Made by a program: the position numbers and the translations under genes. Of a stretch of DNA of 64,000 nucleotides, positions 1-50,620 are shown in pieces (positions within the stretch are counted from its first letter, which is position 1; each line of letters opens with the position of its first letter). The stretch lies in the IMG/VR virus record IMGVR_UViG_3300022198_000005; one strand, written 5' to 3'. The DNA is from an uncultured virus (IMG/VR IMGVR_UViG_3300022198_000005) (taxonomy: Duplodnaviria; Heunggongvirae; Uroviricota; Caudoviricetes). The notes below the pieces were generated by a model. The model saw nothing but the letters and a program-made list of their open reading frames with translations, did no database searches and was not told the DNA's origin.

Positions 1-240
1 CTCAAGGCCAGCCTCTTGAGCTATCACATACTTGGCCTCCCAGACGCTGCCACATGCCTCCTGGTTGACCTTGATGGACTTGCTTGATGACACCTTTACG
101 GTGATGTTGCCTGACCTTAGGTCAGTGCTTTCTGAGGTCCTGGACTTCTCTGCCACAATCCCTGTGCAGAAGAAGAGAGTGTCACGTAGTTCGTCAGAGA
201 TTATTTTTCTCAAGAAGTAAATGTTTGCCCGTCTCTTCAT
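1..240 (-). CDS. Hypothetical protein, partial (runs off the left edge)
   Basis: Manually translated open frame from ATG at 240 (MKRRANIYFLRK...EAGLE) to position 1 with no stop. Confidence 0.55.
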   Translation of the reverse strand, partial: MKRRANIYFLRKIISDELRDTLFFCTGIVAEKSRTSESTDLRSGNITVKVSSSKSIKVNQEACGSVWEAKYVIAQEAGLE

Positions 241-391
241 AAAGTCTCCATTGTATATCAATAAACGGTTTGTTTGCCCTATAGTACGCGTCAGCTGAAG
301 GAAATCCAGCTACGCCTACGGCTTCTCTCTCATCTCTATTCATCCAATAAAGCTGTTCTACAAAAGTTTGAAAGTTGATCTTATCTTGCAT
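194..391 (-). CDS. Hypothetical protein
   Basis: 65-aa ORF packed between co-oriented neighbours. Confidence 0.55.
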   Translation of the reverse strand: MQDKINFQTFVEQLYWMNRDEREAVGVAGFPSADAYYRANKPFIDIQWRLYEETGKHLLLEKNNL

Positions 392-782
392 GATACGCCT
401 TTAGCAGTTCTTCTTGTTTCTGATAGGCCTCTCGCTCCCACGGAGGATACATGTCATCATCAGGCCAAACTTCTTTCATCCATACACTCGATTCATCTTC
501 TTGTATAAGTTCTGAACGGCAGTACTGCTTGACGTGCACCATCTCATGCAAGATACAAGTGATGAGATCATCGTCTTTCATCTTATGATCGATCTCGATC
601 TCGAACATATCTTTATCAATGTGAAGGCAATATCCTTCAGCGCCATCTACGTTCTTATAGGTAAATTCAATGAACAGTTCTTTCTTTCGAGGCATCAGCT
701 TTTTCAATGCAAAGGCTGCTACATCGATCGTAAGCTTTCGCTTCTTTTCTGACCGAGCACCACGTACGGTAAGGTCAATCAT
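381..782 (-). CDS. HEXXH zinc metallopeptidase-like protein
   Basis: LHEMVH motif plus downstream PWERE third-ligand motif. Confidence 0.7.
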   Translation of the reverse strand: MIDLTVRGARSEKKRKLTIDVAAFALKKLMPRKKELFIEFTYKNVDGAEGYCLHIDKDMFEIEIDHKMKDDDLITCILHEMVHVKQYCRSELIQEDESSVWMKEVWPDDDMYPPWEREAYQKQEELLKAYHAR

Positions 783-1447
783 ACTTTACTCCTTGCATTC
801 GCCATGATGCGATAGTATTTAATCCACTGTTCAGGAGTTTTGATCGTCTTGTTGATGGTCATCTTCAAACCAGCTTCCTTAAAGCATGCCTTCAACTTGG
901 CACCAGCTTCCTTTGAGATGAACTTAGAGATTAGCTTGACATGAGCTTGTCTAAACTCAGTGTCATGCCTATTCGAGGTGGTAGCCGCATGAGCCAACTC
1001 ATGCAAGAGGATTAGCTTGTTTAAGCCATGCTTTCTCTGTAGCTTTATCATAGCTGGATCCCCACCCCACCGATCATAGTAAACGCCGGTGTACTTACAA
1101 TCTCTTCGTAAGTATTTGATAGGGATAGTCTTTAGGTTTCGATTGTCATGGCGCTTAGGGCATATCTTTTTCCACAATGTGGAATTTAAGACCATGTCAG
1201 CATAGGCCTGGGCCTCTTCTAGCGATTCGAATTTATTCTCTTCAAGAAGAAGGTAATCGCGTTCCATGATACCTTCAGCTGCATACACTCTTTCGCGTTG
1301 AGTGTCTTTATACGAAGGTGCTCCATTACGTGCGATCGCAGCCTTACGCTTATACACGTAATCTTGGTATTTTTTCGCTTCGACAGAACTTAACCCAGCC
1401 TTAATGGCTTGAGTAAATTCGTCTGACTGCAACACATACCTGTACAT
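779..1447 (-). CDS. HEXXH zinc metallopeptidase-like protein (SprT/zincin-like)
   Basis: LLHELAH followed by H-x3-F (RHDTEF). Confidence 0.65.
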   Translation of the reverse strand: MYRYVLQSDEFTQAIKAGLSSVEAKKYQDYVYKRKAAIARNGAPSYKDTQRERVYAAEGIMERDYLLLEENKFESLEEAQAYADMVLNSTLWKKICPKRHDNRNLKTIPIKYLRRDCKYTGVYYDRWGGDPAMIKLQRKHGLNKLILLHELAHAATTSNRHDTEFRQAHVKLISKFISKEAGAKLKACFKEAGLKMTINKTIKTPEQWIKYYRIMANARSKV

Positions 1448-1480
1448 GTCCGCCTTTCATTGAGTTTTTCAATATGGCTC

Positions 1481-1509
1481 ATTATACAGTATCCAGGCCC
1501 AAAAGTAAA
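1481..1509 (-). promoter_or_regulatory. Sigma70-like early promoter
   Basis: TTTACT-N17-TATAAT on the minus strand upstream of the 1447 start. Confidence 0.65.
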
Positions 1510-1538
1510 TAGGCCAAAGGTTCTATAGTATTTATGTA

Positions 1539-2243
1539 TTACTTTTTAGGCATCTGTACCAAGTTCATCTGGGGGCGGGCATAGACTTTGATGTTCACAT
1601 TCTCGCCAACAGGGAACTTGACATTGTCATGGATATGGTGTAAGACGAAATTTACGTTTGGAAACTCAGCAAACATAGATTGCCAAATAGGTCTCCAATT
1701 CCCATTTAATTTGACATTCTGAGGAGCATTACGATCTGAGTTCATATAGAAGTCTGAAGATGATCTTAGGTTCATGTCAAAGATAGAGTCAAACCCATAT
1801 AAGTTGATCTCTGTTGGGTTGAACTTATTCAATGCGTAATAGGTCGCCATATGGCCACAGTTAAAATCTGTGTAGTTGGCAACATAGTTAGGCTTTTTCG
1901 TAAAGAACTCTTTGATCTGACCAGCACGCTTCATGTGAAACATTGGGTTGTTTTCCATGAAGATCTTAGGACGCCAACCGAGTACCCATTCTCCAGGCAC
2001 ATCGATCTCTCCTCTGGCGATCGCCATCATCATCTTAAAGTCAACGATACATGATGCGTATGCATCTCTCACTGGGAACGGAGGCAAGTTACATGTGAGC
2101 TTCAATCCTTTTCGATTGTTTTGGATTCTACCATCGCTCTTCATTTGGTTTTCAACGGACTTCACATTACCAGTCCATTGAGTAACTACATTATATAGCT
2201 GAGCTTGGTCTCCATTACCAATGATATGAATCACCCTATCCAT
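1539..2243 (-). CDS. Putative glycosyltransferase-like protein (sialyltransferase/MAF-like Rossmann fold)
   Basis: IHIIGNG N-terminal motif, CN motif, GHMA...INLYGFD; last gene of the glycan operon. Confidence 0.45.
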   Translation of the reverse strand: MDRVIHIIGNGDQAQLYNVVTQWTGNVKSVENQMKSDGRIQNNRKGLKLTCNLPPFPVRDAYASCIVDFKMMMAIARGEIDVPGEWVLGWRPKIFMENNPMFHMKRAGQIKEFFTKKPNYVANYTDFNCGHMATYYALNKFNPTEINLYGFDSIFDMNLRSSSDFYMNSDRNAPQNVKLNGNWRPIWQSMFAEFPNVNFVLHHIHDNVKFPVGENVNIKVYARPQMNLVQMPKK

Positions 2244-2244
2244 A

Positions 2245-2928
2245 TTATCCCCAATATTCCTTAATCCAATCTGATGGTTTGTATGTATTCATAGGAGTAA
2301 CGACAGTCTCTGTCATTGCTTGTATGATGCTTGGTCTACCATGAAAACATACGATAGAAGTTTCTTCTGATGGTCTATTACCATAGACCTGATACTTATA
2401 CGACTTTAATTTACCTGGAAAGACTCTCTGTAATAGTTCACGAGAAGTAGAAGGCATCATCTCATTCAAGTATTCACCGTCTCCTCTGAGTTGTTGCATG
2501 ACTTCAGGTTGGGCTTTAAAGTGTTCCCATATATGCTTGTTAAACGAGTAGTTCCACTTCATCACGCCAGATTGAAAACGACCTTTGAGGTGTGGCTGAT
2601 GTACGTTCACACTACCGAGGTCTTCAATGCCCATGAACATGGTGTCATAGTTCATCAACCAGTCGATGTTACCCGTGATGAGAGTATCGAGGTCGAAATA
2701 GACCACGTCTTTACGTAATCCATGCTCGGTGTTGAATAGCTGTAGCTTATTCCACCATCCATTATATCCTTTCTCAAGGATACGAGTCTTCACACCATCA
2801 ATAGGTCTATCACTAAAACATACGAACTCATGAAGAGCGGTCGTGTTCCTTGCGACCATGCTCTTTAAGTTGTGAACATAGTCTACACTAAACTTATCGC
2901 CCCAATAAACACATACTACACTTATCAT
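2245..2928 (-). CDS. GT-A glycosyltransferase
   Basis: VVCVYWGDKF, WWNKLQLF, DLD (DxD), SGVM, GDGE, VCFHGRP motifs. Confidence 0.75.
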   Translation of the reverse strand: MISVVCVYWGDKFSVDYVHNLKSMVARNTTALHEFVCFSDRPIDGVKTRILEKGYNGWWNKLQLFNTEHGLRKDVVYFDLDTLITGNIDWLMNYDTMFMGIEDLGSVNVHQPHLKGRFQSGVMKWNYSFNKHIWEHFKAQPEVMQQLRGDGEYLNEMMPSTSRELLQRVFPGKLKSYKYQVYGNRPSEETSIVCFHGRPSIIQAMTETVVTPMNTYKPSDWIKEYWG

Positions 2929-3572
2929 ACGATCTGATACTTCTCTTTTACATAACCATGTTTAGCTTGACACCCGCGCTCAGCTTGGATAGTCGTAAAG
3001 TTATCTATCACTTCAACCGGCCAAGGATAAAACTCTTCTAGCCATGGGAAACTCGTCTTATGAAGGAACACGTCTGTAGGTGCAGCAATGATCTTTGCTG
3101 CCTCAATCAACTTCTCAGCGCCTCTTGGTTTTACCATATACGCATGAGCTCCAGGAAAATAAGCCTTAGAGAACAAAGGGTTTATTCCAAGAGACATCGA
3201 TACGTTATAGTTACCATAAGATGGTTTGCCTATGTTCATCACTCGATTGAAAGGAGCGTTGACTGGCACTTCGCCTACGACGACCGCATCATGTTCAAAG
3301 ATGATGAGTGGTTCGTCAGTAGCACAACAATACATCCATAGATCATGATGAGACAAGAATGCAGACAGACAGTTGAGGTAACGAGAATACTGGTTTTGAA
3401 ACTTATCTGTAGGAATACCCAAGTCAGAAGCGATACTTTCAGGATCATCCTTCGGCGTGATCGCTGGATGCATGTCACATGTTAGACCATGAGAGTTTGC
3501 TGATCTGATGCACCGCTGAGCTGCTGCCTTTGAGCGTTCATTATCTAAGATGGTGATTACATACGATTTCAT
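2925..3572 (-). CDS. Family 25-like glycosyltransferase
   Basis: AFLSHHDLW...IIFEHDA...GAHAYMVKP-GA, D-x-F pattern. Confidence 0.75.
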   Translation of the reverse strand: MKSYVITILDNERSKAAAQRCIRSANSHGLTCDMHPAITPKDDPESIASDLGIPTDKFQNQYSRYLNCLSAFLSHHDLWMYCCATDEPLIIFEHDAVVVGEVPVNAPFNRVMNIGKPSYGNYNVSMSLGINPLFSKAYFPGAHAYMVKPRGAEKLIEAAKIIAAPTDVFLHKTSFPWLEEFYPWPVEVIDNFTTIQAERGCQAKHGYVKEKYQIV

Positions 3573-4264
3573 AGTGTTGTAGTACTAGGCAAACCTTGTG
3601 TCTTTGTATAATAAGTCTTTGTCACTCCTAAGAAGTCAAAGTTTTGTTTACACATCAATGCATCGTTTGGCCAAGCGCCGATCTCCTTTACTTTATCTAT
3701 TAGCTGAACTGCAGCCCATGGTTTGATCAAGTAGGCAGAGTTTCCTGCAAGTCCTTGAGGTACGTTAAAATCGTCAACAGTTGGTACAAGAGATAGTTCA
3801 GTCATCGAAGACTGTAGCTCTGTATGAAATACACTGGACCTACGCGTAGCTCCTCTCGGATCATTTAAGCCAATACAACCGAATGATGAGTCAAGCAAAG
3901 GTTGTACGTCTAACTTCTTCAACCATATCGCATCGTGTTCAAGCACGATGATAGGTTCATCAGATTCTGCGCAGAAATGCCACAACATATAGTGAGAACA
4001 AAAGCAAGCGATCCTTCTCATACGATCGTTCGTCTTATAAGGAGTTAACACTAAACCGGTCTTTAAGTGGTATTCAGGTTGAAACCATGGATAAGTCCAT
4101 ACGAGGTTATGCTTAGCGATGACGCGTGGAGCAGTATCTCCTGTGATAGCTTCAAACATGATAGCATCAAACTCATTACCTACTTTAGCATGAGACTCGA
4201 TACAACGTTTGGTACCAAAGGTTGATACGTCGTTCTTAGACATCGTAATGATTAAAGATTTCAT
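3569..4264 (-). CDS. Family 25-like glycosyltransferase
   Basis: ACFCSHYMLW...IVLEHDA...GNSAYLIKP; start set at ATG 4264 (ATGA overlap with upstream stop). Confidence 0.75.
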   Translation of the reverse strand: MKSLIITMSKNDVSTFGTKRCIESHAKVGNEFDAIMFEAITGDTAPRVIAKHNLVWTYPWFQPEYHLKTGLVLTPYKTNDRMRRIACFCSHYMLWHFCAESDEPIIVLEHDAIWLKKLDVQPLLDSSFGCIGLNDPRGATRRSSVFHTELQSSMTELSLVPTVDDFNVPQGLAGNSAYLIKPWAAVQLIDKVKEIGAWPNDALMCKQNFDFLGVTKTYYTKTQGLPSTTTL

Positions 4265-5040
4265 CTTGCTATGTAGGCTCCGCCGTGTACACTTGTATGT
4301 ATAGATCCTCCATAAGGCTCGCTCATGACCTGCCACCATCCCCACTCAGCTGGCAACAGGTTCTTCTCTTCATGTAAGATCTTTGCCTTTCCTGGATCAA
4401 AAGCTCCAGGTGCATGAAATATTAAGATGTCTGGCATATAATGATACCAGTCATCATAAGTCGGGAATATCTTTGAAGATCGAATATGATCGTGTGTAGT
4501 ATGATCTATGTTTTTACTTAACTGAATAAAATCATGTAAGGTATGGCCTCGATTCGAGCGAGTCATGAACCCAACTGGTCCTTGCTCTAGCGCAACCTTT
4601 GTCCAAGGAGTAAAGTCAACAAGCGTAGAGACTCCGGTGTCCCATCTTGCCCGAATGTACATGTCGTAGTCTTGCGGCACCTTTGATATGAGGTCTGCAT
4701 ATCCAAGGATCTGCTTACTTGCGTGGGCTGTCTTTCCTCTGAGTATCGTATACTCTTGGAACTGGATGTTGCGCTTATAGTCTACAAACTTACCATGCTT
4801 ACAAGTAGAGTCTTCAACGTCTGCGATAGGATGATAGTCAAGCTTTGGTTCTGGACACGTATACAGTCGGCTATGATACTGTAATGGTATTGTTTGGATC
4901 TTATCTTCCCACGTATGATAGAAAAAATCTAGCACGGCAAAGCGGCCAAAAGCCAACTTCATGGCTCTCAGCAAATCTTCTGGGTTCGGATTTACATAAT
5001 CACGATATAGTCCGTTGATACAGACTGCAACTCTCATCAA
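4261..5040 (-). CDS. Putative glycosyltransferase-like protein
   Basis: RVAVCINGLYR...HTW...YDMYIRARWD pattern; inside the glycan operon. Confidence 0.45.
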   Translation of the reverse strand: MMRVAVCINGLYRDYVNPNPEDLLRAMKLAFGRFAVLDFFYHTWEDKIQTIPLQYHSRLYTCPEPKLDYHPIADVEDSTCKHGKFVDYKRNIQFQEYTILRGKTAHASKQILGYADLISKVPQDYDMYIRARWDTGVSTLVDFTPWTKVALEQGPVGFMTRSNRGHTLHDFIQLSKNIDHTTHDHIRSSKIFPTYDDWYHYMPDILIFHAPGAFDPGKAKILHEEKNLLPAEWGWWQVMSEPYGGSIHTSVHGGAYIAR

Positions 5041-5756
5041 AACTTTCCTATGTTATCCCACCATTCAGAAGCTTTCAACTCGTCGAGTTCAGAAGGAGTT
5101 CCCATTCCCAACATCTGATCGATATGATATGTGCCGATAGGCTCTTCGATATAGTTATACGTTGGAGCGAGATAGAACTCATTATTGGTACGATCATCTG
5201 CCGCGATCATAGACTCAGCTGCTGTTCTAAACTGTTTCTCAGATCTAAAGTAATAGACTCCAACTGTGGCGATGTTAGAGATCTTCTCTTTCTCTGCGAT
5301 ACGTACTACATGACCATTTTCATCAAGTAGTGCATATGAGTGTTTAGGCTCTTCTGTCTTTGGAGTAAACGTAAGGACGGTACCACCAGCATACAGATGT
5401 CGTTTATTATAAAAGTCGAAAGGTTTCCATACCATCAGTTGATCAGAGTTCGCGATCAAAAGATCATCATCACTATTGCCTATAGCTTCTAACACTGTGC
5501 ATGCTGCACCTTCTGTCGGGCCTGGTAAAATTATTACCTTTGCACCAGGTTGCCAACTCAAGATCTCTTTACGAAGTCCAAACTGTTCTTCGTGATCTCG
5601 TCTGATCACATACACCAAAGAAGTAGCTATCTTGATGTTACGCGTGACTTGCAAGAACATAGGAAACCCTTGAATATCAAGCAAGGGTTTGGGTAAAAGG
5701 TAACCAGCGTCAAAGAACCTTTGACTGTTACCGCACATTGGAATAACGACTTTCAT
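5037..5756 (-). CDS. Sugar-phosphate nucleotidyltransferase
   Basis: IPMCGNSQRF...PKPLL, NSDQ, IAEK, VGVYYF, EFY, GTP motifs. Confidence 0.8.
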   Translation of the reverse strand: MKVVIPMCGNSQRFFDAGYLLPKPLLDIQGFPMFLQVTRNIKIATSLVYVIRRDHEEQFGLRKEILSWQPGAKVIILPGPTEGAACTVLEAIGNSDDDLLIANSDQLMVWKPFDFYNKRHLYAGGTVLTFTPKTEEPKHSYALLDENGHVVRIAEKEKISNIATVGVYYFRSEKQFRTAAESMIAADDRTNNEFYLAPTYNYIEEPIGTYHIDQMLGMGTPSELDELKASEWWDNIGKF

Positions 5757-5765
5757 TAAAGCTCC

Positions 5766-6836
5766 TTACATGATTGGTGTATCAAGGCTCTTACGCATCT
5801 CGTACACCTTATCGTAGATCGATTCACCAGTATGTAACCAACCGCCGATGTTTGCTAGCCAATCATTTCCTATCATGCCACGTATCTCGCGAGCTGCTTG
5901 CGGGTTCATACCACAAGAGAGCGCAGGAACTCGATCGTTTGATACACAGATCGACATGGCTTTCAACGTCTCTTCTTCAGACTCGCCTTCAGGGTAATAA
6001 CCACCTAACATGCCAACGTGCATCGTATCGATACCAGCCATCACACCTAACTTCACGAGTACAGGCCATGCGATAGAGAAACGATTACCGGGATCGGTCA
6101 AGATTCGAATACCTGAACGTTGGTAGTGAGTGATCAAGCCCTTTTGCCGACTTGCTGTATAAGCGCCTAAGCCTGACCAGAAGTTGATGTGTACACAATC
6201 ACCGCCATGTTGAGACACGTCTGATAGGTTATTGATGAGTTCGATCGGGTCAGCATTCACACAATATGAATACACAACTTTTGAGTTCTTCTTTGAGATC
6301 AACTCGCTCACAGCACGGACACGAACAGAAAGAGGCAGATAATTATTATCAGCCATGATCTCATCTTCTTTGATGAAGTCAGTACCTCCATCGATCATCT
6401 GCTCTACAATGTTCAGTAATTGCTCTTTCGTCAGGCCTGACTTTGGCTTTACGATAGAACCAAACAATGGCCGATTCTGCGCGTCACACCGTTCTTTCAT
6501 ACCTTTCAGTCCAAGCATAGGCTCATACATGTAAGGTAACCCTTCGATGTCAAGCACTCGACAACGCTTGACAAGATCAATATCTGACTGTCCGCCTTGG
6601 ATCACGCATAGAAGCTGAGAGATATTGGGCCAAGTCCATGCTTTCAACGGGTACTTGATCTTTACGATGTTACCGTCGATCGAGTCAACAATGGCTTCCA
6701 TCTCTTTGATGTTTTCGGACATCTCGATCTCAGATCGAATGTTTGGGTTGCCGATACTTTGGCCAATGGCGATGTTATGCGCTACCTTCGCAATGTCATC
6801 ACCTTCTACTTCATAGGTTACTGTATAGTAAGTCAT
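5766..6836 (-). CDS. RuBisCO-like protein (form IV RLP)
   Basis: RPLFGSIVKPKSGL, GGTDFIKEDE (KxDE metal/carbamate motif), PALSCGM, NIGG; lacks His294 and loop-6 Lys334 equivalents. Confidence 0.85.
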   Translation of the reverse strand: MTYYTVTYEVEGDDIAKVAHNIAIGQSIGNPNIRSEIEMSENIKEMEAIVDSIDGNIVKIKYPLKAWTWPNISQLLCVIQGGQSDIDLVKRCRVLDIEGLPYMYEPMLGLKGMKERCDAQNRPLFGSIVKPKSGLTKEQLLNIVEQMIDGGTDFIKEDEIMADNNYLPLSVRVRAVSELISKKNSKVVYSYCVNADPIELINNLSDVSQHGGDCVHINFWSGLGAYTASRQKGLITHYQRSGIRILTDPGNRFSIAWPVLVKLGVMAGIDTMHVGMLGGYYPEGESEEETLKAMSICVSNDRVPALSCGMNPQAAREIRGMIGNDWLANIGGWLHTGESIYDKVYEMRKSLDTPIM

Positions 6837-7279
6837 TCTTTGCCTAAATAGTCTGTTACGACTCCCACAAACTCATATTTGCGGCAGTCTTCGATGGTCC
6901 AGTGTGATAGTTCAGGCATCACAGCGATACTGTTCTGCCCGGCGGGGAGGCGGCCTGGATAACACCACACGTACCCCTTTCTGGTATATGTATATGGCTC
7001 TTGATCATGCCAAAAGACATCAGCAACGAGTTTCATCTCATTGAGTCTTATGTATGCTGGACCATTCTTTGCATGGATGAAGAACCTATCGTTCTCTAAC
7101 CACTCGTTCTTTACTGCCCATTGCGGACCATCATGACCAGTATAAAACTGACCAAGATGATACCATACATCAACCTCTACGCCATCAGCAAGCTGAAGCG
7201 CATCTTCAACATACTTCGGTTCGTTCTCATACTTTAGACCGATGCCATGGGTGTTACCACGATGCGAAATCAACATCAT
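6833..7279 (-). CDS. Glycerophosphodiester phosphodiesterase-like small protein
   Basis: LISHRGN...ENEP...VEVDV...GHD...GVVTD motifs. Confidence 0.65.
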   Translation of the reverse strand: MMLISHRGNTHGIGLKYENEPKYVEDALQLADGVEVDVWYHLGQFYTGHDGPQWAVKNEWLENDRFFIHAKNGPAYIRLNEMKLVADVFWHDQEPYTYTRKGYVWCYPGRLPAGQNSIAVMPELSHWTIEDCRKYEFVGVVTDYLGKE

Positions 7280-7890
7280 CGCGTCACCTTGAAGATATAA
7301 CTGTCTGGCTCGCCAGTCGTCTTACGATTGTCAAAGCGAGTGACGTTGTGTTTCTCAACAGTGGTCAAGAACTTCATCATCTTCATGATGTTATATTCTT
7401 CGTTGTGCCTTAATACCCAAGGATGATTCAGCTCTTGTTGAGTCATGATGTCAAGAGGAAAGACGTCTTCGATATAGTAGCTGCCATCTTCTTTGAGCAT
7501 AGGAAACATAAGGTCAAACGTTTCTCTGTTGGCATCAGGCGTATGTTTACCATCATCGATGATGATGTCAAATTTGATGTCTGGCCATGCATGATTCATC
7601 TTGTTTACAGTATGATACGACATGCTACTACCTTGAATCGCGCTGACTCGAGCCTCATTAATGATCTCAAGAGACAACATAGGCACTCGATCAAACAGGT
7701 CTATACAATAGATCTTTGCGTTTGGAAAGTACTCTAGCCATGCTTGAGTACTCGCGCCTTTAAAGATACCGATCTCAAGGATGTTCAGTTCTTCTTCGCG
7801 AATGGGTGCAAACTCTGGTTCATATACATCCTCATAAGAATGCTTATGACCTTTATCACATTCGTACTTGTCAAATAGTGCTCTTAACAT
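7276..7890 (-). CDS. Class I SAM-dependent (sugar O-)methyltransferase
   Basis: ILEIGIFKGAS, FDIIIDDGKH, YYIEDV. Confidence 0.8.
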   Translation of the reverse strand: MLRALFDKYECDKGHKHSYEDVYEPEFAPIREEELNILEIGIFKGASTQAWLEYFPNAKIYCIDLFDRVPMLSLEIINEARVSAIQGSSMSYHTVNKMNHAWPDIKFDIIIDDGKHTPDANRETFDLMFPMLKEDGSYYIEDVFPLDIMTQQELNHPWVLRHNEEYNIMKMMKFLTTVEKHNVTRFDNRKTTGEPDSYIFKVTR

Positions 7891-8681
7891 ATCTCTTCCA
7901 TCAATCTTTGTACGTTCTCACCTCGTTCTGGTAACAGATCTTTTAAGAAGAAGTGAACGAAGTGTGCTTCCTTGATCTTATCATCTCTTACACCTTTATA
8001 CAAAGCGTTCCATTTCCAATCAAGGTGTTGCTGTACCATCTTCTCTTTTCTCACCCAAGTATTTAGCAACGTTTGGTCTGTCGACCATTTCCATGGGCCT
8101 GCTCCGTCAACAAAGTCTTTAAACTCTGGACGCATGATAAATTCGCGAGGTGTTTCTCCTCGAAGGTAACGAGTGATGCCTTTATTCATCACCATCAACC
8201 CCATATTATAGAACTCAAATCCAAGCCCGTTCGGCGTAAAGTCTACTTTATTGTTATGAAGTTGACCATACTGCATACGAGAATAGTTGATGATCTTCTG
8301 AGCATACTGTTCAGTAATAGGCATCTCACGCTCTACCACACCAGCAAACTCTGTCTCAGGCTTTAACTCATCAAAGATGTTAGGTGCATCAGGACGAATG
8401 TAGATGTCTGCATCGACGATCGCGATCTGGTCTGCAGCATCAAAGTAATCGAACGCGTTTTCTTTTTCAAAGATAGGTAAGAAACCTCCGTGCTTCTCAT
8501 ACGACTCTTTACTTCGATTCGTAGAGAACACATCAGGCTTGATGCGTAATATTGGACTACGCTGAAGCGTATAGTCAATGCCATGCCTTGAACAGTATGC
8601 AGCTACTGATGCAGTGCAGTGATCGTATAGCTTGCTTGGTTTACCGACGTAAACCTGATATATCATTCTTCTCATTACCAA
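7884..8681 (-). CDS. GT-A glycosyltransferase (GT8/GT34-like)
   Basis: IVDADI (DxD), YNMGLMV, DQTLLN, WKWNA, FVHF. Confidence 0.75.
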   Translation of the reverse strand: MVMRRMIYQVYVGKPSKLYDHCTASVAAYCSRHGIDYTLQRSPILRIKPDVFSTNRSKESYEKHGGFLPIFEKENAFDYFDAADQIAIVDADIYIRPDAPNIFDELKPETEFAGVVEREMPITEQYAQKIINYSRMQYGQLHNNKVDFTPNGLGFEFYNMGLMVMNKGITRYLRGETPREFIMRPEFKDFVDGAGPWKWSTDQTLLNTWVRKEKMVQQHLDWKWNALYKGVRDDKIKEAHFVHFFLKDLLPERGENVQRLMEEIC

Positions 8682-8875
8682 CGCCCATCATCGATGATGA
8701 CTCGAATCCACACCGGACCGAGTGAGAGTTTGTTGTCGAACCAGTTATCAGATTCTGGCCACTCTTTTACTTTTGTTATATATTTAAATTCCCAGTGATA
8801 CGGGTTGAATACAAACCCAACCCAAATTCCTGAATACTTTAAATACTTAGTTATCGTCTTTATCATGTTCACCAT
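8675..8875 (-). CDS. Hypothetical protein
   Basis: 66-aa ORF, co-oriented and overlapping the next gene. Confidence 0.55.
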   Translation of the reverse strand: MVNMIKTITKYLKYSGIWVGFVFNPYHWEFKYITKVKEWPESDNWFDNKLSLGPVWIRVIIDDGRW

Positions 8876-8960
8876 ATTTTAGAGTGTAGTCAATCATCCA
8901 CCAAATAGCACACACGATCACGATAAGCATGCATACTAAGAATAGCATTATACCACTCCT

Positions 8961-9638
8961 CTAGTGTTTTGTAAATATACTTATACCCAGTTTAGATGTG
9001 ACCCCGACTTTTCGAAAATCACTTGCACAGTGGAGTTGTGTGCAGTCAAACATGATGGCGTCACCAGGCACCCATTCATGCATAGAATGTACTGATAAAC
9101 CTTCGAGCCACTTGTGTTTGATATGAGGCATGTATTCGTTATGATCTCGAAAGCTAACCATCTTTGATCTATTAATGCCTTCTACTTTGTCATACTGATA
9201 CAAACAATCGTTATAGTAGGTCTCGACTTCCTTCTCACCATTGAAGAACTTACTCGGCGGACCTTTGTAGTGCTGATCGAAGAAGATTAGTTTAGGATCT
9301 TCTGTCTTTTCACCAATGGTCTGTAATGGCAAGGTGATCGCTTTATATACCTTTGGCATCGACTTATGACCATCCGTATGGATGATGTGAGGAGTAGAAG
9401 TCATAAAGTGCATCGCATGGATGACTTCACACGGACCAATCTTTGACTTGATTCGTTCAAAGATATTGTGCATTAAGCCTGTTCCTGTACCAAGGTGAGG
9501 CGTAAGGTCAGTACATATGGGCCCGGTGTTCTTATGTACTTTAGGCATCCATTCGTACATACCTATCAGCCATCTGACTTCAATATCAGAGAGGAAAGAT
9601 TCGTACCTCAGTGGCGGTGTTGAAGCTTCGCTATGCAT
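8961..9638 (-). CDS. 2OG-Fe(II) oxygenase-like protein
   Basis: IHTDG (HxD)...GDAIMFDCTQLH...SK. Confidence 0.65.
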   Translation of the reverse strand: MHSEASTPPLRYESFLSDIEVRWLIGMYEWMPKVHKNTGPICTDLTPHLGTGTGLMHNIFERIKSKIGPCEVIHAMHFMTSTPHIIHTDGHKSMPKVYKAITLPLQTIGEKTEDPKLIFFDQHYKGPPSKFFNGEKEVETYYNDCLYQYDKVEGINRSKMVSFRDHNEYMPHIKHKWLEGLSVHSMHEWVPGDAIMFDCTQLHCASDFRKVGVTSKLGISIFTKH

Positions 9639-10312
9639 TTCGATACATTCTCAGGAGTGAATGGTATGTTCATGATCAAGTGAATGCTGTCGTTCGCCCA
9701 GCTGATGGTGCGATGCATCCTTCTCGTATTGATATAGTATGCCCGACCTAACTCAATGTTGATCTTCTTATCATCGACCAACCAATCATACTCATAAGGA
9801 CCACACTTGTTTAAAAACACTGCGACTCGAAAGGTCTCACGTGGCATGTAAGGTTGGTCACGGTGCGGTACAAAGAAACCGCCAATGCCGCAGTTGACCA
9901 AGAACGTACGACCAAGCGGAGAGAAGTAGTCAAGCAGAGGGTGCAGGCTTTCGCACGCATCATATACTTCTGTGCGTTCATTAAAGTCTGCTTCGCTTAG
10001 TCTACGCTTTGCTTCTAAACATGCTTGAGGCAAGCTTGGGTTGTCTTGATGTGATTTTCCAGGTAAGTTAGAGAGCACTAAACCTTTACGATTGTTACGT
10101 ACGTCTGTACGAGGTAAGTAGTCTACCCAGTCATTCTTGAAGAATGAGATTTCTTTCATGAACTGACCGACGTTTAACTTGAAGTCAAGAGGTTCAAAGT
10201 CTCCTAAGTTATTCAGAGCCAACTCACACGCGATGTCTTGCACTGTACAAGTACTAAAGTCTTGTACAACCTCTCTACCACTTACGCCAGGCGGAACGAC
10301 TTGATTATCCAC
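9608..10312 (-). CDS. Aspartyl/asparaginyl beta-hydroxylase-like 2OG-Fe(II) oxygenase
   Basis: PHRD...GRAYYINTRRMH...IHLI; start uncertain (GTG 10312 chosen to minimise overlap). Confidence 0.65.
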   Translation of the reverse strand: MDNQVVPPGVSGREVVQDFSTCTVQDIACELALNNLGDFEPLDFKLNVGQFMKEISFFKNDWVDYLPRTDVRNNRKGLVLSNLPGKSHQDNPSLPQACLEAKRRLSEADFNERTEVYDACESLHPLLDYFSPLGRTFLVNCGIGGFFVPHRDQPYMPRETFRVAVFLNKCGPYEYDWLVDDKKINIELGRAYYINTRRMHRTISWANDSIHLIMNIPFTPENVSKCIAKLQHRH

Positions 10313-10976
10313 GGAAAAGCTGCCTATTGTTATATTCCTTGATGGTATCAAGGAGGAGTTCAGTATAGTTATCGCGATGCTCTTTGAACACGAGAGGTTT
10401 TTCATGGTCTACATCCATGACCACTACCGTATTCGTGATGGGCATACCAGTGCGTTCTTCCCACATGATCGCATACGCAGACATCTGAGCAAAGTAGTTA
10501 GAGATCTTATCCTTTTCTTTGATCCTACGAGAGGTTTTAAAGTCTATGATTGAAGGTACACCGTCGAACTGAGCAACGCAATCACAACGCCCAGCCAAGC
10601 CAAGGTGCCTAGAATAAAGAGGACTTTCAATCCCATATATGGGACCAACCCGAGAGTCCAATATCGGCTTAAGGTTCGCAAAGCTTTGTTGTATGTGTGG
10701 GAGATAGTCAGATGTGTCTTCATTCTTTAGATATTTTTCAACGATAGCATGTACAGAAGTGCCTCTCGCTGAGGCACGATTACTCACGCGATTGGCTTCA
10801 TCTTCGCCCACTCTTGCGCGCCATTCTCTGATCGACTGTTCAGTTAATATGCCAAGCACTGTAGTAACAGAAGGATACTTATGCCCATTAGGGTCAACGT
10901 ATCTCCTGCCACCAGATTCTGAAGTTTCGACATTAAGGTCTTCATAACCAAGATCAATGAATTCATGTTTAAACAT
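10305..10976 (-). CDS. PD-(D/E)xK exonuclease (T4-like phage Cas4/RecB-like)
   Basis: YPSVTTVL, RGTSVH, AGRCD, IIDFKTS, QMSAY. Confidence 0.85.
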   Translation of the reverse strand: MFKHEFIDLGYEDLNVETSESGGRRYVDPNGHKYPSVTTVLGILTEQSIREWRARVGEDEANRVSNRASARGTSVHAIVEKYLKNEDTSDYLPHIQQSFANLKPILDSRVGPIYGIESPLYSRHLGLAGRCDCVAQFDGVPSIIDFKTSRRIKEKDKISNYFAQMSAYAIMWEERTGMPITNTVVVMDVDHEKPLVFKEHRDNYTELLLDTIKEYNNRQLFRG

Positions 10977-11311
10977 TATAAGAAGTTTTTTGTATCAGCA
11001 AATTCTTTATATTTAACACCGTACCCAAGAGCGCACATCTTTCCTTGTAAGACTTCAAAGTAAGTCCAATCTTTTGTTTCAGGATGTAAGGTAATAAACA
11101 TCTCTGTCGTAAAAGGTTGGCCGTTGACGTTCCTTATGCTTACACCACCACCTATGATCTTTTCTCCTGACCTCTCGAGGAAGATAGAGAACTTATCAAG
11201 AGCCATGCACTCTGGTACGATCCTTGGACCATATTCGGTCGGTTGAGCCTCAGCTGGGAGCTGATGGAGTAAGATAGCGAGCGCCGCAATGACGGCGAGT
11301 ATGGTTTTCAT
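10976..11311 (-). CDS. Secreted hypothetical protein
   Basis: Signal peptide (MKTILAVIAALAILL...AEA), two Cys. Confidence 0.6.
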   Translation of the reverse strand: MKTILAVIAALAILLHQLPAEAQPTEYGPRIVPECMALDKFSIFLERSGEKIIGGGVSIRNVNGQPFTTEMFITLHPETKDWTYFEVLQGKMCALGYGVKYKEFADTKNFL

Positions 11312-11988
11312 TTAACACCTAACATTTCCTTTGTCATGATATAATCGCGGACCAAACCTGATCGAACGATGTCGTCCCAGCCAAACGTCACGACTGAAAA
11401 GTAATTTAGCTGGTCGACGATACGAAGAAACTTCATAACGCCGTCGCGTTCATTATCGTTTGTAAAGTCTGACTGGAGATAGTCTCCACAGAAAATGATA
11501 CGACAATTTTCGCCTACCCTTGTCATCACTGAATCGAGCTCGTGGAAATTCAGGTTCTGCATCTCATCGACGATGATGATGGTGCGGTGAAATGTGGTGC
11601 CTCGGATGAAAGACGTCGTTTCGAAGTCGATCTGATGGTTATTCTTTAACTTACTGTACGCCGAGGAATCTCGAAAGAGCTCTTCACAAATGTATTTATA
11701 AGGAGTTTCATAACTCGCTTTCTTCTCTTCGACTGTACCAGGCAAAAAGCCCATATCTCTCACAGGTACTACGGATCGAATGATGACTACTCGATCATAT
11801 ACACTTGACTTATCAAGGATTTCTTCAAGTGCAAGGTACAAAGCAACAAAGGTCTTACCTGTGCCTGCAGATCCAACCATCACGATATTATCACCATCAT
11901 CCCAAGCGTCATATACTTTCACTTGGTTCTTGGTGATAGCCTCAAACTGAGGCAAATCTGTATCTTTTAGTTTAGCTGCGTTACTCAT
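11308..11988 (-). CDS. phoH: PhoH-family ATPase
   Basis: GSAGTGKT, GFLPG, FIRGTTF, VDEMQN, CGDYLQSD, DIVRS. Confidence 0.95.
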   Translation of the reverse strand: MSNAAKLKDTDLPQFEAITKNQVKVYDAWDDGDNIVMVGSAGTGKTFVALYLALEEILDKSSVYDRVVIIRSVVPVRDMGFLPGTVEEKKASYETPYKYICEELFRDSSAYSKLKNNHQIDFETTSFIRGTTFHRTIIIVDEMQNLNFHELDSVMTRVGENCRIIFCGDYLQSDFTNDNERDGVMKFLRIVDQLNYFSVVTFGWDDIVRSGLVRDYIMTKEMLGVK

Positions 11989-12227
11989 CGTTTAATCGTG
12001 TTCCCTCGCCCTGAACCCTTTTGAATCCTACCTAACAACTCATTCCAACCACTACCAGCTCTACGTAAAGTAGACTTTGAATCTGATATAAGTTCTGGAG
12101 CTTTACCAGTGTTCCAAACTCGAATGATGTCAGGGTTTTCGTCTAACATGATCTGTAAGTCATCCCAAGAACAACGAACGTCCCATTCATGATTATTACT
12201 AATGTCTTTAAGCGTATACGTCGGCAC
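11985..12227 (-). CDS. Conserved T4-like hypothetical protein (FmdB-like)
   Basis: MPTYT N-terminus, GW-x-E-L-L-x-RI C-terminus; upstream of phoH. Confidence 0.6.
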   Translation of the reverse strand: MPTYTLKDISNNHEWDVRCSWDDLQIMLDENPDIIRVWNTGKAPELISDSKSTLRRAGSGWNELLGRIQKGSGRGNTIKR

Positions 12228-14394: not shown

Positions 14395-14796
14395 TTAAAT
14401 CTTCAAATGAGACGCATTTATCTTACAGGATATAAACTCGTTGTAATACTTTGGATTTACAAGTACATCATACTGGAACTGAAGCTTGGCCTCATAGTAT
14501 GAGCACTCGCCTTTGGTCTTACAAAGGTGAAGGATCTCTCTCTTATAATTATCTCTGCCTTTGGCTTCGACCAACTGCTTGACGAGTTTGTTTGATCCAT
14601 AATAGTCTCGCCAATCAGACTCTATACGAGTACGTACACGTCGCTTCCGAGTCTTGGTGATGCCTAAGACTTTTGGTTTCCAGAAGAACTTCTTACCAAT
14701 GTACATCATACCGGTATCAAGTTCAGTGATACAATAGACAAATCCTTGGTATTCTTTAGGAGTATCTTCAAGCGGTTCGTTCTTGTATAGCCACAT
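14395..14796 (-). CDS. GIY-YIG (Seg-like) endonuclease
   Basis: GFVYCIT...YIGKK...YYGS...REIL...E...YYN. Confidence 0.8.
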   Translation of the reverse strand: MWLYKNEPLEDTPKEYQGFVYCITELDTGMMYIGKKFFWKPKVLGITKTRKRRVRTRIESDWRDYYGSNKLVKQLVEAKGRDNYKREILHLCKTKGECSYYEAKLQFQYDVLVNPKYYNEFISCKINASHLKI

Positions 14797-34034: not shown

Positions 34035-35081
34035 ATGAAAGATAAGATTGTTATTGTTGATATGGCAACTTTGGATCCGATTACAGAAAACGAGGTAGCT
34101 GATAACCGGTTCGGTGGATGGATGTACGCAGCAGGAAATCTGCTCTTTGAACAGATGGCTTCTAAACCACTAGAATCCATGAACAAGACAGTGCTTCAAG
34201 CTGTAGACACCTTTGTATTTTCATCTCTAAGTTGGGATCCAGAATACAAACAACGGGCTTTTCAAGGGAAGATTAGGCCTGACTCCATCCTTAAAGGAAT
34301 GGGAGTCAACGCGATGGTTGAGGTTACCAAGTTCCTTCGAAAAGAAGTGGACATGTTTAGTTTAAACTACATGTGCGCCACTGGTTTAAAAGCCATCGAG
34401 TTAGGTAGGTTACTGATCGAAGCCCAAGATCAAGTAGTCCTCGTCGGTTGTATTGATGATCCTATCGTTGAGATCGAGATCAAAGCTGCGATGGCAACTC
34501 GAGCCATTAGTGTAGACGATACTTATTATGGGCCTTTCGATAAGAAGAGGAGCGGGTTTGCTGCAGGTCGTTCTGCTTCTTATGTCGCGATATGTAGCGA
34601 GAAGAAAGCAAAAGAGCTTGGGGTAGATCCGATCGCTGTGATTGAAGACGTACGATCAGCCACAAAAGGCATCGCTCGTACACAGCCATCTGATGCTGAC
34701 TTCTTGTGTCAACTTGTAGACTCAGTCGTAAAAGACTGGGATAGCATTGGTCATTGGAATGCTCATGCTACAGCAACTCCTGTAGGAGACGTGATCGAAT
34801 ATGATATGTTTAAACGGAGTGTAGGCAATCGCGATATCCCAATCTCGAGCTTGAAAGGTCGTATTGGACATACGATGTCAAACTCGGGTCTCTGTGAGAT
34901 GATTCATGGTATCATGTCTTTTCAACAGAAAAAGGTCTTTAAGACGCACAACCTCGTAGACCCATTCGTCGATGATCCTCGCATTATCATGGAAGACGTA
35001 AGCACCACGAAAGATACGTTTCTGAAGTGTTCATTCGGTTTCTCAGGTAAAAACTCTGTGGTATTAGTAAAATGTCTGTAA
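34035..35081 (+). CDS. Beta-ketoacyl synthase (FabB/FabF-like), shortened N-terminal domain
   Basis: Cys-His-His triad: YMCATG, NAHATATPVGD, KGRIGH; GPFDKKRSGF; SFGFSGKN. Confidence 0.85.
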   Translation: MKDKIVIVDMATLDPITENEVADNRFGGWMYAAGNLLFEQMASKPLESMNKTVLQAVDTFVFSSLSWDPEYKQRAFQGKIRPDSILKGMGVNAMVEVTKFLRKEVDMFSLNYMCATGLKAIELGRLLIEAQDQVVLVGCIDDPIVEIEIKAAMATRAISVDDTYYGPFDKKRSGFAAGRSASYVAICSEKKAKELGVDPIAVIEDVRSATKGIARTQPSDADFLCQLVDSVVKDWDSIGHWNAHATATPVGDVIEYDMFKRSVGNRDIPISSLKGRIGHTMSNSGLCEMIHGIMSFQQKKVFKTHNLVDPFVDDPRIIMEDVSTTKDTFLKCSFGFSGKNSVVLVKCL

Positions 35082-35626
35082 CAAAGATCGGCGAAGTCGA
35101 TTTAGAACGAGTAAAGAACGAGCTGTTCAAGCATGAAGTGCTACGTAATTTAGAAAAGCATAGTTCTAATCAAGAGCAGCACTTAAAATATAACCTACAA
35201 CGTAGAAGTAAGACTTCAGACTTTTCTACTACTGGTAAGTCTCTATGGGCAACTAACCCTGAAGGAAATGACTTTTTACCTTATGATCCCGACTACACTG
35301 AGAACTTATATCGTAGCGAGATGCCTTATGTGTACTTGCTCATTGAAGAGTTTAACCTATGCCGAACTCGAGTATTAACACTTCAACCTAGTACAAACTA
35401 TTCATTTCATCAAGACTTAACTAAACGAATACACATACCAATAATTTCAAACGAACATTGTGTATTCATTATAGATGATAAGGTATGGAGACTTCCAGCA
35501 GATGGATCGGTTTATTTAGTTGATACCACTCTACTACATACTGCTATCAATGGCAATATGAGAAAGTTTAATCGTATGCACTTAGTCGGTTCGATCGAGT
35601 CTGACGTGCAAGACGAAGAAGAATAA
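35072..35626 (+). CDS. Aspartyl/asparaginyl beta-hydroxylase-like 2OG-Fe(II) oxygenase
   Basis: FHQD..KRIHIPI...DGSVYLVDTTLLHTA.N...RMHLV. Confidence 0.75.
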   Translation: MSVTKIGEVDLERVKNELFKHEVLRNLEKHSSNQEQHLKYNLQRRSKTSDFSTTGKSLWATNPEGNDFLPYDPDYTENLYRSEMPYVYLLIEEFNLCRTRVLTLQPSTNYSFHQDLTKRIHIPIISNEHCVFIIDDKVWRLPADGSVYLVDTTLLHTAINGNMRKFNRMHLVGSIESDVQDEEE

Positions 35627-36374: not shown

Positions 36375-36378
36375 ATCA

Positions 36379-38171: not shown

Positions 38172-38207
38172 TTTCTTCCTCAAGTAGATTTGCATCTTCT
38201 TCTGTGT

Positions 38208-38873: not shown

Positions 38874-38892
38874 AGCGGTTCATCACCAATCA

Positions 38893-40142: not shown

Positions 40143-40145
40143 ATG

Positions 40146-40529: not shown

Positions 40530-40562
40530 AATATTCTCCTGTTAGTCTTGACTAGCATAATG

Positions 40563-45726: not shown

Positions 45727-45728
45727 GA

Positions 45729-47269: not shown

Positions 47270-47274
47270 AATCA

Positions 47275-47850: not shown

Positions 47851-47857
47851 GGTAAAT

Positions 47858-48186: not shown

Positions 48187-48268
48187 TTTTGGATCAGATA
48201 GCTGGGTTTGCTCGCTCTAGGCATCCGGTGAAGACGATACATTACTGCTCGTCAGATCCAAAACCATC

Positions 48269-50614: not shown

Positions 50615-50620
50615 ACACAA

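Follow-up and report, generated by a model that had tools for sequence, protein, structure and literature searches.

The window analysed here is the whole 64,000-nucleotide stretch of DNA of the uncultured virus IMGVR_UViG_3300022198_000005 (Caudoviricetes). In it, a gene coding for a RuBisCO-like protein (RLP) lies directly beside a gene for a sugar-phosphate nucleotidyltransferase (NTPt), within a block of genes related to glycan synthesis. A preliminary description, made from the sequence alone, had proposed that this RLP works biosynthetically and makes an unusual, perhaps branched or acidic sugar which is then nucleotide-activated and added to glycans of the virion or the host surface. 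The window belongs to the genome of a T4-like phage, as it encodes UvsX, a DnaB-like helicase, PhoH and a T4-type RNase H; both ribonucleotide-reductase subunits, a pyrimidine-dimer glycosylase, ThyX, an endolysin and a virion protein were also identified (Pfam and PHROG). Nearly all genes between 381 and 31000 are on the minus strand, and the GC content is even (0.40-0.48). A cyanophage origin was considered and dropped, since the closest GenBank phage by UvsX was Phage C48C1 (72%), followed by Stenotrophomonas and Acidovorax phages.

Twelve co-directional minus-strand open reading frames (ORFs) run from 8875 to 1539, with overlaps of 1-7 nt or gaps of no more than 9 nt, except at one uncertain GTG start. 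The ends of this block are the only two gaps of about 85-90 nt, and the two best sigma-70-like matches on the minus strand fall one into each of them. The block probably starts at 8875, and the match at 8975-8947 is no more than suggestive of a promoter from which it would be transcribed. The features are as follows, in the direction of transcription:

8947-8975, minus strand: sigma-70-like promoter match, TTTACA-17-TATAAT with TG (11/12; the best of 21 sites in 1-11000), in the 85-nt gap upstream of the block
8675-8875, minus strand: first ORF of the block, 66 aa, overlapping the next gene by 7 nt
7884-8681, minus strand: putative GT-A-type glycosyltransferase with a conserved DADIWIR motif (Glyco_transf_8, E 0.0054, 16.8 bits, under the cut-off of 24.3)
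7276-7890, minus strand: S-adenosylmethionine (SAM)-dependent methyltransferase, Methyltransf_24 (PF13578, 4.4e-9, 37.6 bits versus 26.3; phrog_21658, 5.6e-20)
6833-7279, minus strand: mini-GDPD, a protein of 148 aa resembling glycerophosphodiester phosphodiesterases (GDPD), with the signature HRG..EN..ExD..GHD, upstream of the RLP
5766-6836, minus strand: RLP of a form IV-like clade, 356 aa (Pfam, PDB search, AlphaFold2 model, alignment and tree)
5037-5756, minus strand: sugar-phosphate nucleotidyltransferase of an RLP-coupled subgroup (PF00483, 28.8 bits versus a cut-off of 21.2)
4261-5040, minus strand: DUF7796-like transferase with a predicted GT-A fold, directly after the NTPt gene (AlphaFold2 pLDDT 88.9; Foldseek; hhalign)
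3569-4345, minus strand: GT25 glycosyltransferase (PF01755, 3.2e-11, 43.9 bits versus 24), start uncertain, the listed GTG overlapping the upstream gene by 85 nt
2925-3572, minus strand: GT25 glycosyltransferase (PF01755, 9e-10, 39.2 bits versus 24)
2245-2928, minus strand: phage glycosyltransferase family protein (phrog_1962 'glycosyltransferase', 3.2e-25)
1539-2243, minus strand: last gene of the block, possibly an MptE/Maf-like transferase (Atlas rank 4, 0.91, in a cluster with 17% PF01973 MptE-like members; a lead only)
1509-1481, minus strand: sigma-70-like match (10/12) in the gap at the other end of the block

The product of 5766-6836 is a member of the RuBisCO large-subunit superfamily, with an N-terminal alpha+beta domain and a C-terminal TIM barrel. 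It matched Pfam RuBisCO_large (PF00016, 3.1e-23, 82.9 bits versus a cut-off of 30.1) and RuBisCO_large_N (PF02788, 4.8e-5, 24 bits versus 20.7), and its AlphaFold2 model (pLDDT 91.4) has the full fold, with TM values of 0.83-0.88 to RLP and form III structures (3nwr, 2d69, 3a12). By sequence (1.5e-22) as well as by fold, the closest solved relative was 3nwr_A, an RLP of Burkholderia fungorum. RuBisCO numbers were assigned through HMMER alignments and the usual RuBisCO numbering. With these, the motif KPKSGL contains K130 and K132 (positions of Lys175 and Lys177), and FIKEDE contains K156 (the carbamylated Lys201) and the metal ligands D158 and E159 (Asp203 and Glu204), while the phosphate-binding residues are kept as S307/G309 (Ser379/Gly381) and G331/G332 (Gly403/Gly404). 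The lack of equivalents of His294 and Lys334, which the preliminary description had noted for its form IV RLP, was confirmed together with both motifs: the position of His294 is taken by Gln239 in THYQRSG, and loop 6 reads GMLGGYY (GMxGGY in the family). In the N-terminal domain, AIGQSxGNP and MGG stand where RuBisCO has Glu60, Thr65 and Asn123, none of which is present.

All nine residues at these catalytic and phosphate-binding positions (K130, K132, K156, D158, E159, S307, G309, G331 and G332) did not vary in any of the 36 aligned relatives, whose identity goes down to 36%, and the same holds for Gln239 and the family-specific N-terminal motif AIGQSxGNPxxR. Since both sets are conserved, the RLP is apparently an active enzyme that does not carboxylate, and the inactive protein that the preliminary description had put forward as a contrary outcome does not agree with this pattern. 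It could still be argued that the RLP has no catalytic activity and serves as a scaffold or regulator, since His294, Lys334 and the N-domain residues of true RuBisCO are missing and its subclade is shorter by about 40 residues at the C-terminus. We regard this as extremely improbable: the ligands of metal and carbamate, like the glycines of the phosphate site, are unchanged throughout the alignment, and many lineages have kept the gene and joined it to that of an enzyme.

The RLP did not reach the cut-off of any of the curated models tried for a bona fide RuBisCO or a known RLP enzyme. It scored 108 bits with rubisco_III (cut-off 497), 99 with PRK04208 (438), 100.4 with the model for OiaX, the 3-oxo-isoapionate-4-phosphate decarboxylase (NF042437, cut-off 700; the second-best NCBIfam model), and 66.7 and 49.2 with the MtnW/YkrW models NF007095 (409) and TIGR03332 (513.6). 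Six other family members, including SAR11 and DPANN proteins and one natural fusion, were likewise below the curated cut-offs (162-216 versus 409 for MtnW). Judged by these scores, the protein is about equidistant from the form III, OiaX and MtnW models and is none of the known RLP enzymes. In a FastTree tree, read without support values and rooted with one form I RuBisCO and two OiaX-like RLPs as outgroups (the latter from the Azospirillum and Nonomuraea genomes that also carry family members), the RLP family formed one clade apart from the outgroups. At its base were lineages from Azospirillum, Elusimicrobia, Nonomuraea, DPANN and SAR11, and the subgroup of the window was a long derived phage branch. 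The members of this phage subclade have lost a C-terminal tail of about 40 residues (consensus ...EYxxAIxKWG), so that the protein of the window has 356 aa versus about 397 aa in distant phages, genomes and metagenome-assembled genomes (MAGs).

The neighbouring NTPt carries the signature GxGxR...K, in which G9, R13 and K23 were invariant in 26 of 26 aligned sequences. In a profile search of the PDB, the best match was 4evw_A (6.7e-37), an uncharacterised protein named only 'nucleoside-diphosphate-sugar pyrophosphorylase', followed by GDP-mannose pyrophosphorylases (about 1e-12) and also by HddC and RmlA. The protein remained below the NCBIfam cut-offs of RmlA, GlmU, HddC, IspD, GalU and MurU, the best score being 32.3 versus 292 for Arch_glmU. 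In a quick tree (SH-aLRT search only), NTPts adjacent to GDPD genes formed a clade (SH-aLRT 100) apart from those adjacent to RLP genes, and the NTPt of the window grouped with the NTPt domains of RLP fusions. A predicted complex of the RLP and the NTPt scored 0.01 versus a mark of 0.32, and this was taken neither for nor against the coupling.

Relatives of the RLP were encoded in 179 IMG/VR stretches, from which 80 loci were kept: 41 close loci with an RLP at least 60% identical (L001-L039, L043 and L046) and 39 distant ones (38-42% identical), which are also T4-like (RegA, clamp loader). The NTPt of the window was found by tblastn in 72 of the 80 loci, a set that includes the distant 39 with their different gene order. 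Of the eight loci without a match, four stop at roughly 1.2 kb or less from the RLP on one flank, and clustering recovered an NTPt in another two, L063 and L065 (displayed for L063). Close loci have the order of the window, RLP-NTPt-DUF7796, with DUF7796a present in 34 of 41; the genes at 7884-8681 and 1539-2243 recur in 37 and 25 of the 41, respectively. Neither the window nor the other close-phage cassettes contained a dehydratase, oxidoreductase, kinase or mutase detectable by Pfam, PHROG or clustering. The order in the distant loci is NTPt-cupin-RLP-(Methyltransf_24)-GDPD-(DUF7796)-(SDR), where SDR is a short-chain dehydrogenase/reductase; a metal cupin of 108 aa, not found in the window, was present in 36 of 39, GDPD in 25, DUF7796 in 19, the methyltransferase in 18, SDR in 9 and a phosphomannomutase (PMM)-type mutase in 8. 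With the cupin profile, only generic metal cupins were matched in the PDB (quercetinase 9e-6, a small mannose-6-phosphate isomerase 3.4e-4).

The same cassette was present outside viruses. Two scans over one genome per prokaryotic species gave 43 loci, 40 of which yielded an RLP ORF; L122 and L123 were not long enough to do so. The carriers include a complete Candidatus Pelagibacter chromosome, many SAR11 single-cell genomes, Azospirillum oleiclasticum, Nonomuraea rosea, Verrucomicrobia, Planctomycetes, Elusimicrobia, Saccharibacteria and Patescibacteria, among these Beckwithbacteria, as well as the archaeal Woese-, Nano-, Micr- and Pacearchaeota. An NTPt was encoded within 5 kb of the RLP in 37 of the 40 loci, and directly adjacent on the same strand in 24. 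GDPD was found within the same distance in 26; a DUF7796 protein was present in 14, the cupin in 11 and an SDR in 10. The usual order was GDPD-NTPt-(cupin)-RLP-(NTPt)-DUF7796, and in many cassettes two NTPt genes flank the RLP. The annotated neighbours were overwhelmingly genes for envelope glycans, namely GT2, GT1/4, GT9, GT17, GT61, WavE, Wzy_C, Bac_transf, PMT_2, DegT, RmlC, GDP-mannose dehydratase, FkbM- and C-methyltransferases, a carbamoyltransferase and B12-radical-SAM enzymes. Linkage of the homologues to glycan genes, which the preliminary description had put forward as a test, was thus observed in phages, bacteria and archaea.

Several of these loci deserve mention in their own right. 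In SAR11 (L096, L103, L106, L107, L110, L113, L115 and L117), the cassette occurs in two layouts, either with a single NTPt (GDPD-NTPt-RLP) or with two NTPts flanking the RLP and followed by DUF7796, and in some of the single-cell genomes it is wedged in like an insertion. The RLP-NTPt-GDPD set is found in two cultured bacteria, Nonomuraea rosea JCM 17326 (L094), where it is flanked by a phage-type integrase and a transposase, and Azospirillum oleiclasticum RWY-5-1-1 (L095/L134), whose genome also encodes, at other places, a form I RuBisCO and an OiaX-like RLP. In three MAG loci the block is of the phage version and has phage genes beside it: L081 (a 142-kb contig of a Sphingobacteriales MAG), L082 (a Balneola MAG, nearly identical to the IMG/VR locus L043) and L116 (a Saprospirales MAG, with a gp32-like neighbour). 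They look like phage contigs binned into Bacteroidota/Balneolota MAGs, and may hint at the hosts.

Such neighbourhoods bear on whether the RLP salvages or detoxifies a SAM by-product, acting on methylthio- or 5-deoxy-pentulose phosphates produced by the methyltransferases or radical-SAM enzymes of the clusters, with the cupin as in the MTA (methylthioadenosine)-isoprenoid shunt of Rhodospirillum. An RLP and a small cupin are the pair used in that shunt, and SAM methyltransferases and B12-radical-SAM genes are common neighbours. We nevertheless consider salvage very unlikely. The family scores far under the MtnW cut-offs, which also speaks against the standard methionine-salvage enzyme named as an alternative in the preliminary description, and the solved RLP2 of Rhodopseudomonas (2qyg) was matched only at 7e-12, versus 1.5e-22 for 3nwr. 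No methionine-salvage genes (mtnA/B/K/X/D) were seen among the Pfam-annotated neighbours in the window, in 26 phage cluster representatives and among about 160 genome and MAG neighbours, a survey that is not exhaustive, and MtnA-, MtnK- or MtnP-type genes were likewise missing from the annotated neighbours. Moreover, the cupin profile matched no solved methylsulfurylase-like protein, and salvage would leave the fusion of the RLP to an NTPt, described next, unexplained.

Among proteins of 624-2000 aa, 33 relatives of the RLP were found, all of them of 634-672 aa and all with PF00483 and PF00016 in the precomputed Pfam annotation. A domain scan of five of these natural fusions gave the order RLP-NTPt in P0195, P0222 and P0225, and NTPt-RLP in P0196; in P0210 only RLP domains were detected at E<=0.001, and its C-terminal part groups with other NTPt domains in the tree. 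Because the two domains are fused in both orders, there is strong evidence at the level of sequence that RLP and NTPt act in one pathway. Two other fusions were observed beside RLP genes: in Micrarchaeota (L109:7956-9473), an NTPt is fused to a GDPD domain in a protein of 505 aa, and in Woesearchaeota (L100:4025-5827), a GHMP kinase is fused to an NTP_transferase domain (600 aa).

As to the remaining genes of the block, the preliminary description had named a nucleotidyltransferase, a methyltransferase and a GDPD-like gene as neighbours of the RLP, and PF00483, Methyltransf_24 and the GDPD signature were indeed recovered; two corrections concern the block, which probably extends to 8875, and the GDPD-like gene, which by its alignment is a half-length version. 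With 148 aa, the mini-GDPD falls short of a full (beta/alpha)8 barrel of about 240 residues, and by itself it gave no Pfam match at E<=0.01. Its profile matched the GDPD 7e0v_A at 3.2e-4 over residues 3-53 (7e0v residues 14-63), that is, only over the first 50 or so positions, and H6, R7, E18, N19, E35, D37 and H49 were invariant in 22 of 22 aligned relatives. A hidden Markov model (HMM) built from the mini-GDPD family labels archaeal neighbours that pass Pfam GDPD (PF03009), for example L100:8683-9426 at 5.1e-17, and full-length, Pfam-positive GDPDs stand in the place of the mini-GDPD in DPANN cassettes.

The protein encoded at 4261-5040 had no Pfam match of its own, and the connection to DUF7796 came from an Atlas lead. 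The top Foldseek matches of its model were all GT-A glycosyltransferases (1fo8 at 2e-5, SpsA), with TM values of only 0.4-0.47, and hhalign aligned it with Pfam-positive DUF7796 neighbours of distant phages, SAR11 and DPANN (98.9%, E 3e-17, 124 columns). On this profile evidence, the DUF7796-like GT-A protein is homologous across the phage, SAR11 and DPANN cassettes. The family profile of 7884-8681 gave no PDB match at E<=1. The protein of 2245-2928 had no Pfam match and no tblastn match among the 80 viral loci, that of 1539-2243 had no Pfam or PHROG match and three weak, unrelated matches in the PDB profile search, and the 66-aa ORF had no match in Pfam, in PHROG or, by tblastn, among the 80 viral loci. 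Of the four to six glycosyltransferases counted in the preliminary description, four have fair evidence (the two GT25 enzymes, the phrog_1962 protein and the DUF7796-like protein), and those at 7884-8681 and 1539-2243 are putative.

In the RuBisCO superfamily, a proton is taken next to the carbonyl of a phosphorylated ketose on a carbamate-Mg site, and in the absence of carboxylation this leads to epimers or to isomers with a shifted carbonyl. By analogy, we propose, as the fairly probable reading of the locus, that the RLP isomerises a ketose phosphate of the host, that the NTPt links the product to a nucleotide and that the neighbouring GT-A enzyme then passes it on to a glycan. The block from 8875 to 1539 would then be one phage glycan-synthesis unit in which RLP and NTPt are the only precursor-making enzymes. 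Since the close-phage cassette contains no kinase, mutase, dehydratase or oxidoreductase, the carbonyl substrate would be phosphorylated and ready-made from the host, and the product of the RLP would be the substrate of the NTPt. The RLP would enolise and re-protonate a phosphorylated ketose of host central metabolism, so that a carbonyl shift or an epimerised centre gives a rare sugar phosphate; the NTPt would join this ester to a nucleoside triphosphate, giving an NDP- or CDP-linked donor; and the DUF7796-like GT-A enzyme would move the activated unit onto the growing glycan. The other glycosyltransferases would lengthen this glycan, the Methyltransf_24 enzyme probably O-methylates it, and the mini-GDPD might supply or recycle a phosphomonoester from a phosphodiester. 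In related cassettes, the small metal cupin and the SDR could provide optional isomerisation and reduction steps. The biosynthetic role and the coupling to the NTPt that the preliminary description had claimed are supported by homologue linkage, fusions and invariant residues, while we infer the type of reaction, which enzyme acts first, the substrate, and whether the host envelope or the virion is the acceptor. A branched or acidic product, and a virion rather than a host-surface target, are not supported by these data.

The fusions in both domain orders would also suit a reversed order of steps, in which the NTPt activates a sugar phosphate first and the RLP then enolises, epimerises or isomerises a nucleotide-linked keto-sugar, its phosphate site holding the diphosphate bridge and cupin and SDR finishing the product. 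Two NTPt genes flank the RLP in many genome and MAG cassettes; cupin and SDR, present in 36 and 9 of the 39 distant phage loci, are classic tailoring enzymes of NDP-keto-sugars; and the invariant N-terminal motif with Arg34 could, as we infer, bind an extra phosphate. However, the close-phage cassettes have no dehydratase or oxidoreductase with which to make a keto-sugar nucleotide, and we know of no member of the RuBisCO superfamily that acts on a nucleotide-linked substrate. On these grounds the reversed order appears unlikely.

Another explanation starts from the GDPD. Here the nucleotide-activated product would be a polyol phosphate, glycerol phosphate or a donor of lipid head groups rather than a sugar, and would serve for decoration resembling teichoic acids or for the remodelling of membrane lipids; GDPD would free the phosphomonoester from deacylated phospholipid head groups. 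This would be in line with the GDPD genes within 5 kb of the RLP in 26 of 40 genome and MAG loci, with the GDPD-NTPt fusion of L109 and with the separate clade of GDPD-adjacent NTPts. A glycerol-3-phosphate dehydrogenase (L101) and a TagD-like cytidylyltransferase (L118) lie nearby, a fatty-acid desaturase follows the cassette in L089, and five desaturase paralogues are encoded in the window. Yet the RLP needs a carbonyl substrate and glycerol phosphate has none, no CDP-alcohol phosphatidyltransferase or TagF-like polymerase was seen among the annotated neighbours, GDPD is missing from most close phage cassettes, and the conserved transferase has a predicted GT-A fold. We therefore judge a polyol or lipid product to be quite unlikely.

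It was also considered that the block modifies the phage DNA, by a sugar hypermodification of bases in T-even style, rather than a surface glycan. The carrier is T4-like and the block lies among replication and nucleotide-metabolism genes of the same strand. On the other side, the same cassette occurs in genome and MAG envelope-glycan clusters with membrane GT-C enzymes, Wzy and Bac_transf, GT25 is a family of lipopolysaccharide type, and no hydroxymethylase was seen in the window, which is only part of the genome. DNA modification is for these reasons highly improbable.

Several observations weigh against the proposed route from RLP through NTPt to GT-A transferase. The chemistry of the RLP clade, of the 4evw-type NTPt and of DUF7796 rests on analogy. 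The NTPt resembles enzymes for anomeric sugar-1-phosphates (RmlA, GlmU, ManC, HddC), and a ketose-phosphate isomerisation of RLP type does not obviously yield an anomeric phosphate. The fusions indicate a shared pathway, not consecutive steps. Within the RLP, many relatives have Gln for His327, and more distant ones have Lys for Arg295. Three of the 40 genome and MAG loci (L087, L083 and L111) have no NTPt. The last two are contigs of 3-4 kb; in L087 the RLP lies beside arginase, ornithine cyclodeaminase and permease genes, and a DUF7796 protein is encoded at a distance of two genes. In SAR11, some loci are located between housekeeping genes (ThyX, Mrp/ParA, HflKC), with DUF7796 as the sole transferase. 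The mini-GDPD is missing from 37 of 41 close phage loci, and its role would therefore be accessory. As for the promoter match, the total of sigma-70-like sites (21 in 1-11000) was not above that of shuffled sequences (mean 24.8). Nevertheless, none of the rival explanations accounts as well for the fusions, the minimal set of precursor enzymes in the phage cassette and the glycan context together.

Several known systems resemble parts of this cassette. OiaX-type RLPs and 3nwr are alike in being non-carboxylating RLPs that act on sugar-acid phosphates. OiaX, however, is catabolic, whereas the context of the RLP of the window is anabolic, and the OiaX-like paralogues of Azospirillum and Nonomuraea, which score 461 and 381 bits, fall outside the clade of the window's RLP. 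MtnW/YkrW, the 2,3-diketo-5-methylthiopentyl-1-phosphate enolase, and the cupin-partnered 5-methylthioribulose-1-phosphate isomerase RLP of Rhodospirillum belong to the same superfamily and carry out enolisation on a ketose 1-phosphate. The present family differs from these by being coupled and fused to an NTPt, with no methionine-salvage neighbours seen. In the pneumococcal AbpA/AbpB and in TarI/TarJ, an enzyme of NTP_transferase fold activates a pentulose or pentitol phosphate (xylulose-5-phosphate to CDP-xylulose, ribitol-5-phosphate to CDP-ribitol) and an SDR carries out the reduction. NTPt and SDR likewise recur in RLP cassettes, but those routes use a ready-made intermediate of the pentose-phosphate pathway and have no RLP, GDPD or cupin. 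Finally, an NTPt 38% identical to that of the window occurs in a glycosyltransferase cluster of Synechococcus phage S-CAM9 (AOV60556.1), where a fused HAD_2 domain would feed it in place of an RLP, in agreement with an RLP that acts ahead of the NTPt; at this locus (L090, KU686205.1 149676-151061), the HAD_2-NTPt gene lies amid glycosyltransferases, a sulfotransferase-like gene and GT25, and there is no RLP.

To our knowledge, all characterised RLPs act in salvage or catabolism. If the proposal is true, a clade tied to a nucleotidyltransferase in glycan clusters would represent a biosynthetic role for the RuBisCO superfamily. The broader form of the proposal is that this deep-branching RLP clade catalyses a reaction type new to the superfamily, as the committed step of a widespread but unrecognised nucleotide-sugar or nucleotide-polyol pathway that varies the envelopes of SAR11, CPR (candidate phyla radiation) and DPANN cells, and that T4-like phages captured its RLP-NTPt-transferase core to rewrite the host surface or to decorate virions; the enzyme family would then possess a glycan branch, anabolic in function, that dates back to its split from true RuBisCO. 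We hold this to be possible, with a chance somewhat short of even. As the cassette occurs in genomes of SAR11, CPR and DPANN as well as in recurrent phages from freshwater and elsewhere, what it makes may be a common cell-surface component and a point of conflict between phage and host. The branching of the clade outside the form I and OiaX-like outgroups used here also bears on the function of the RuBisCO ancestor.

The novelty claimed in the preliminary description has to be restricted, since the phage RLP clade was already published in 2018/19: about 90 'form IV-like' RLPs on putative phage contigs from IMG/VR, some of them Myoviridae, were reported to group with Beckwithbacteria, with the verdict 'possible functionality unclear' (Jaffe et al., Mol Biol Evol 2019, PMC6389311; preprint 10.1101/386292). 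The new part is the context of the pathway. The words 'glycosyl' and 'nucleotidyl' occur 0 times in the text of PMC6389311 and of one supplement (figures excluded), and full-text literature searches, including PMC12168267, returned none that connects an RLP with a nucleotidyltransferase, with the synthesis of polysaccharides or with glycans of SAR11. The probable likeness to the published clade lies in the T4-like carrier, in the 179 IMG/VR stretches with relatives and in the Beckwithbacteria MAG homologue L085, which falls inside the RLP clade of our FastTree tree (with one form I and two OiaX-like outgroups). Beyond that text, the present analysis adds the NTPt/GDPD/cupin/DUF7796 cassette and the fusions, and it places the family in SAR11, Azospirillum, Nonomuraea and many DPANN genomes; neither the fusions nor the wide occurrence in SAR11, CPR and DPANN was described in a paper that we found. 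A clade of unclear function in 2018 thus becomes a testable two-enzyme system, with natural fusions and two cultured carriers.

With regard to the distribution of the block itself, tblastn with the RLP gave no match at E<=1e-5 in 50,697 GenBank phage records, a collection from which the window's own or very near records were possibly excluded, and megablast with window 1-12000 gave none in GenBank phages. The nearest virus record (G001, 49 kb) had no RLP match. DNA nearly identical to window 4200-9000 was present in sequencing runs labelled as freshwater or estuary metagenomes, from several studies and dated 2017 to 2025; ten runs contain at least half of the sampled words of this region, two of which may be the source of the window, and no RNA run was among those listed.

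Elsewhere in the window, positions 34035-50620 hold a block of oxygenase and lipid genes that is unusual for a phage:

34035-35081, plus strand: beta-ketoacyl-synthase-like gene
35072-35626, 38208-38873 and 39501-40142: three Asp/Asn-beta-hydroxylase-like 2-oxoglutarate (2OG) oxygenases
35568-36374, 36379-37113, 42685-43437, 46502-47275 and 49856-50620: five fatty-acid desaturase (PF00487) paralogues
37113-38195 and 40563-41399: two TauD-like dioxygenases
44908-45798: Rieske protein
48314-49177: PstS-like binding protein

A further ORF of 133 aa (14395-14796), between the RNase H and ribonucleotide-reductase genes, matched the PHROGs 'NAD synthetase' (1.3e-38) and homing endonuclease (6.3e-18). 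Judging from these matches, it may be a mobile endonuclease beside the nrd genes.

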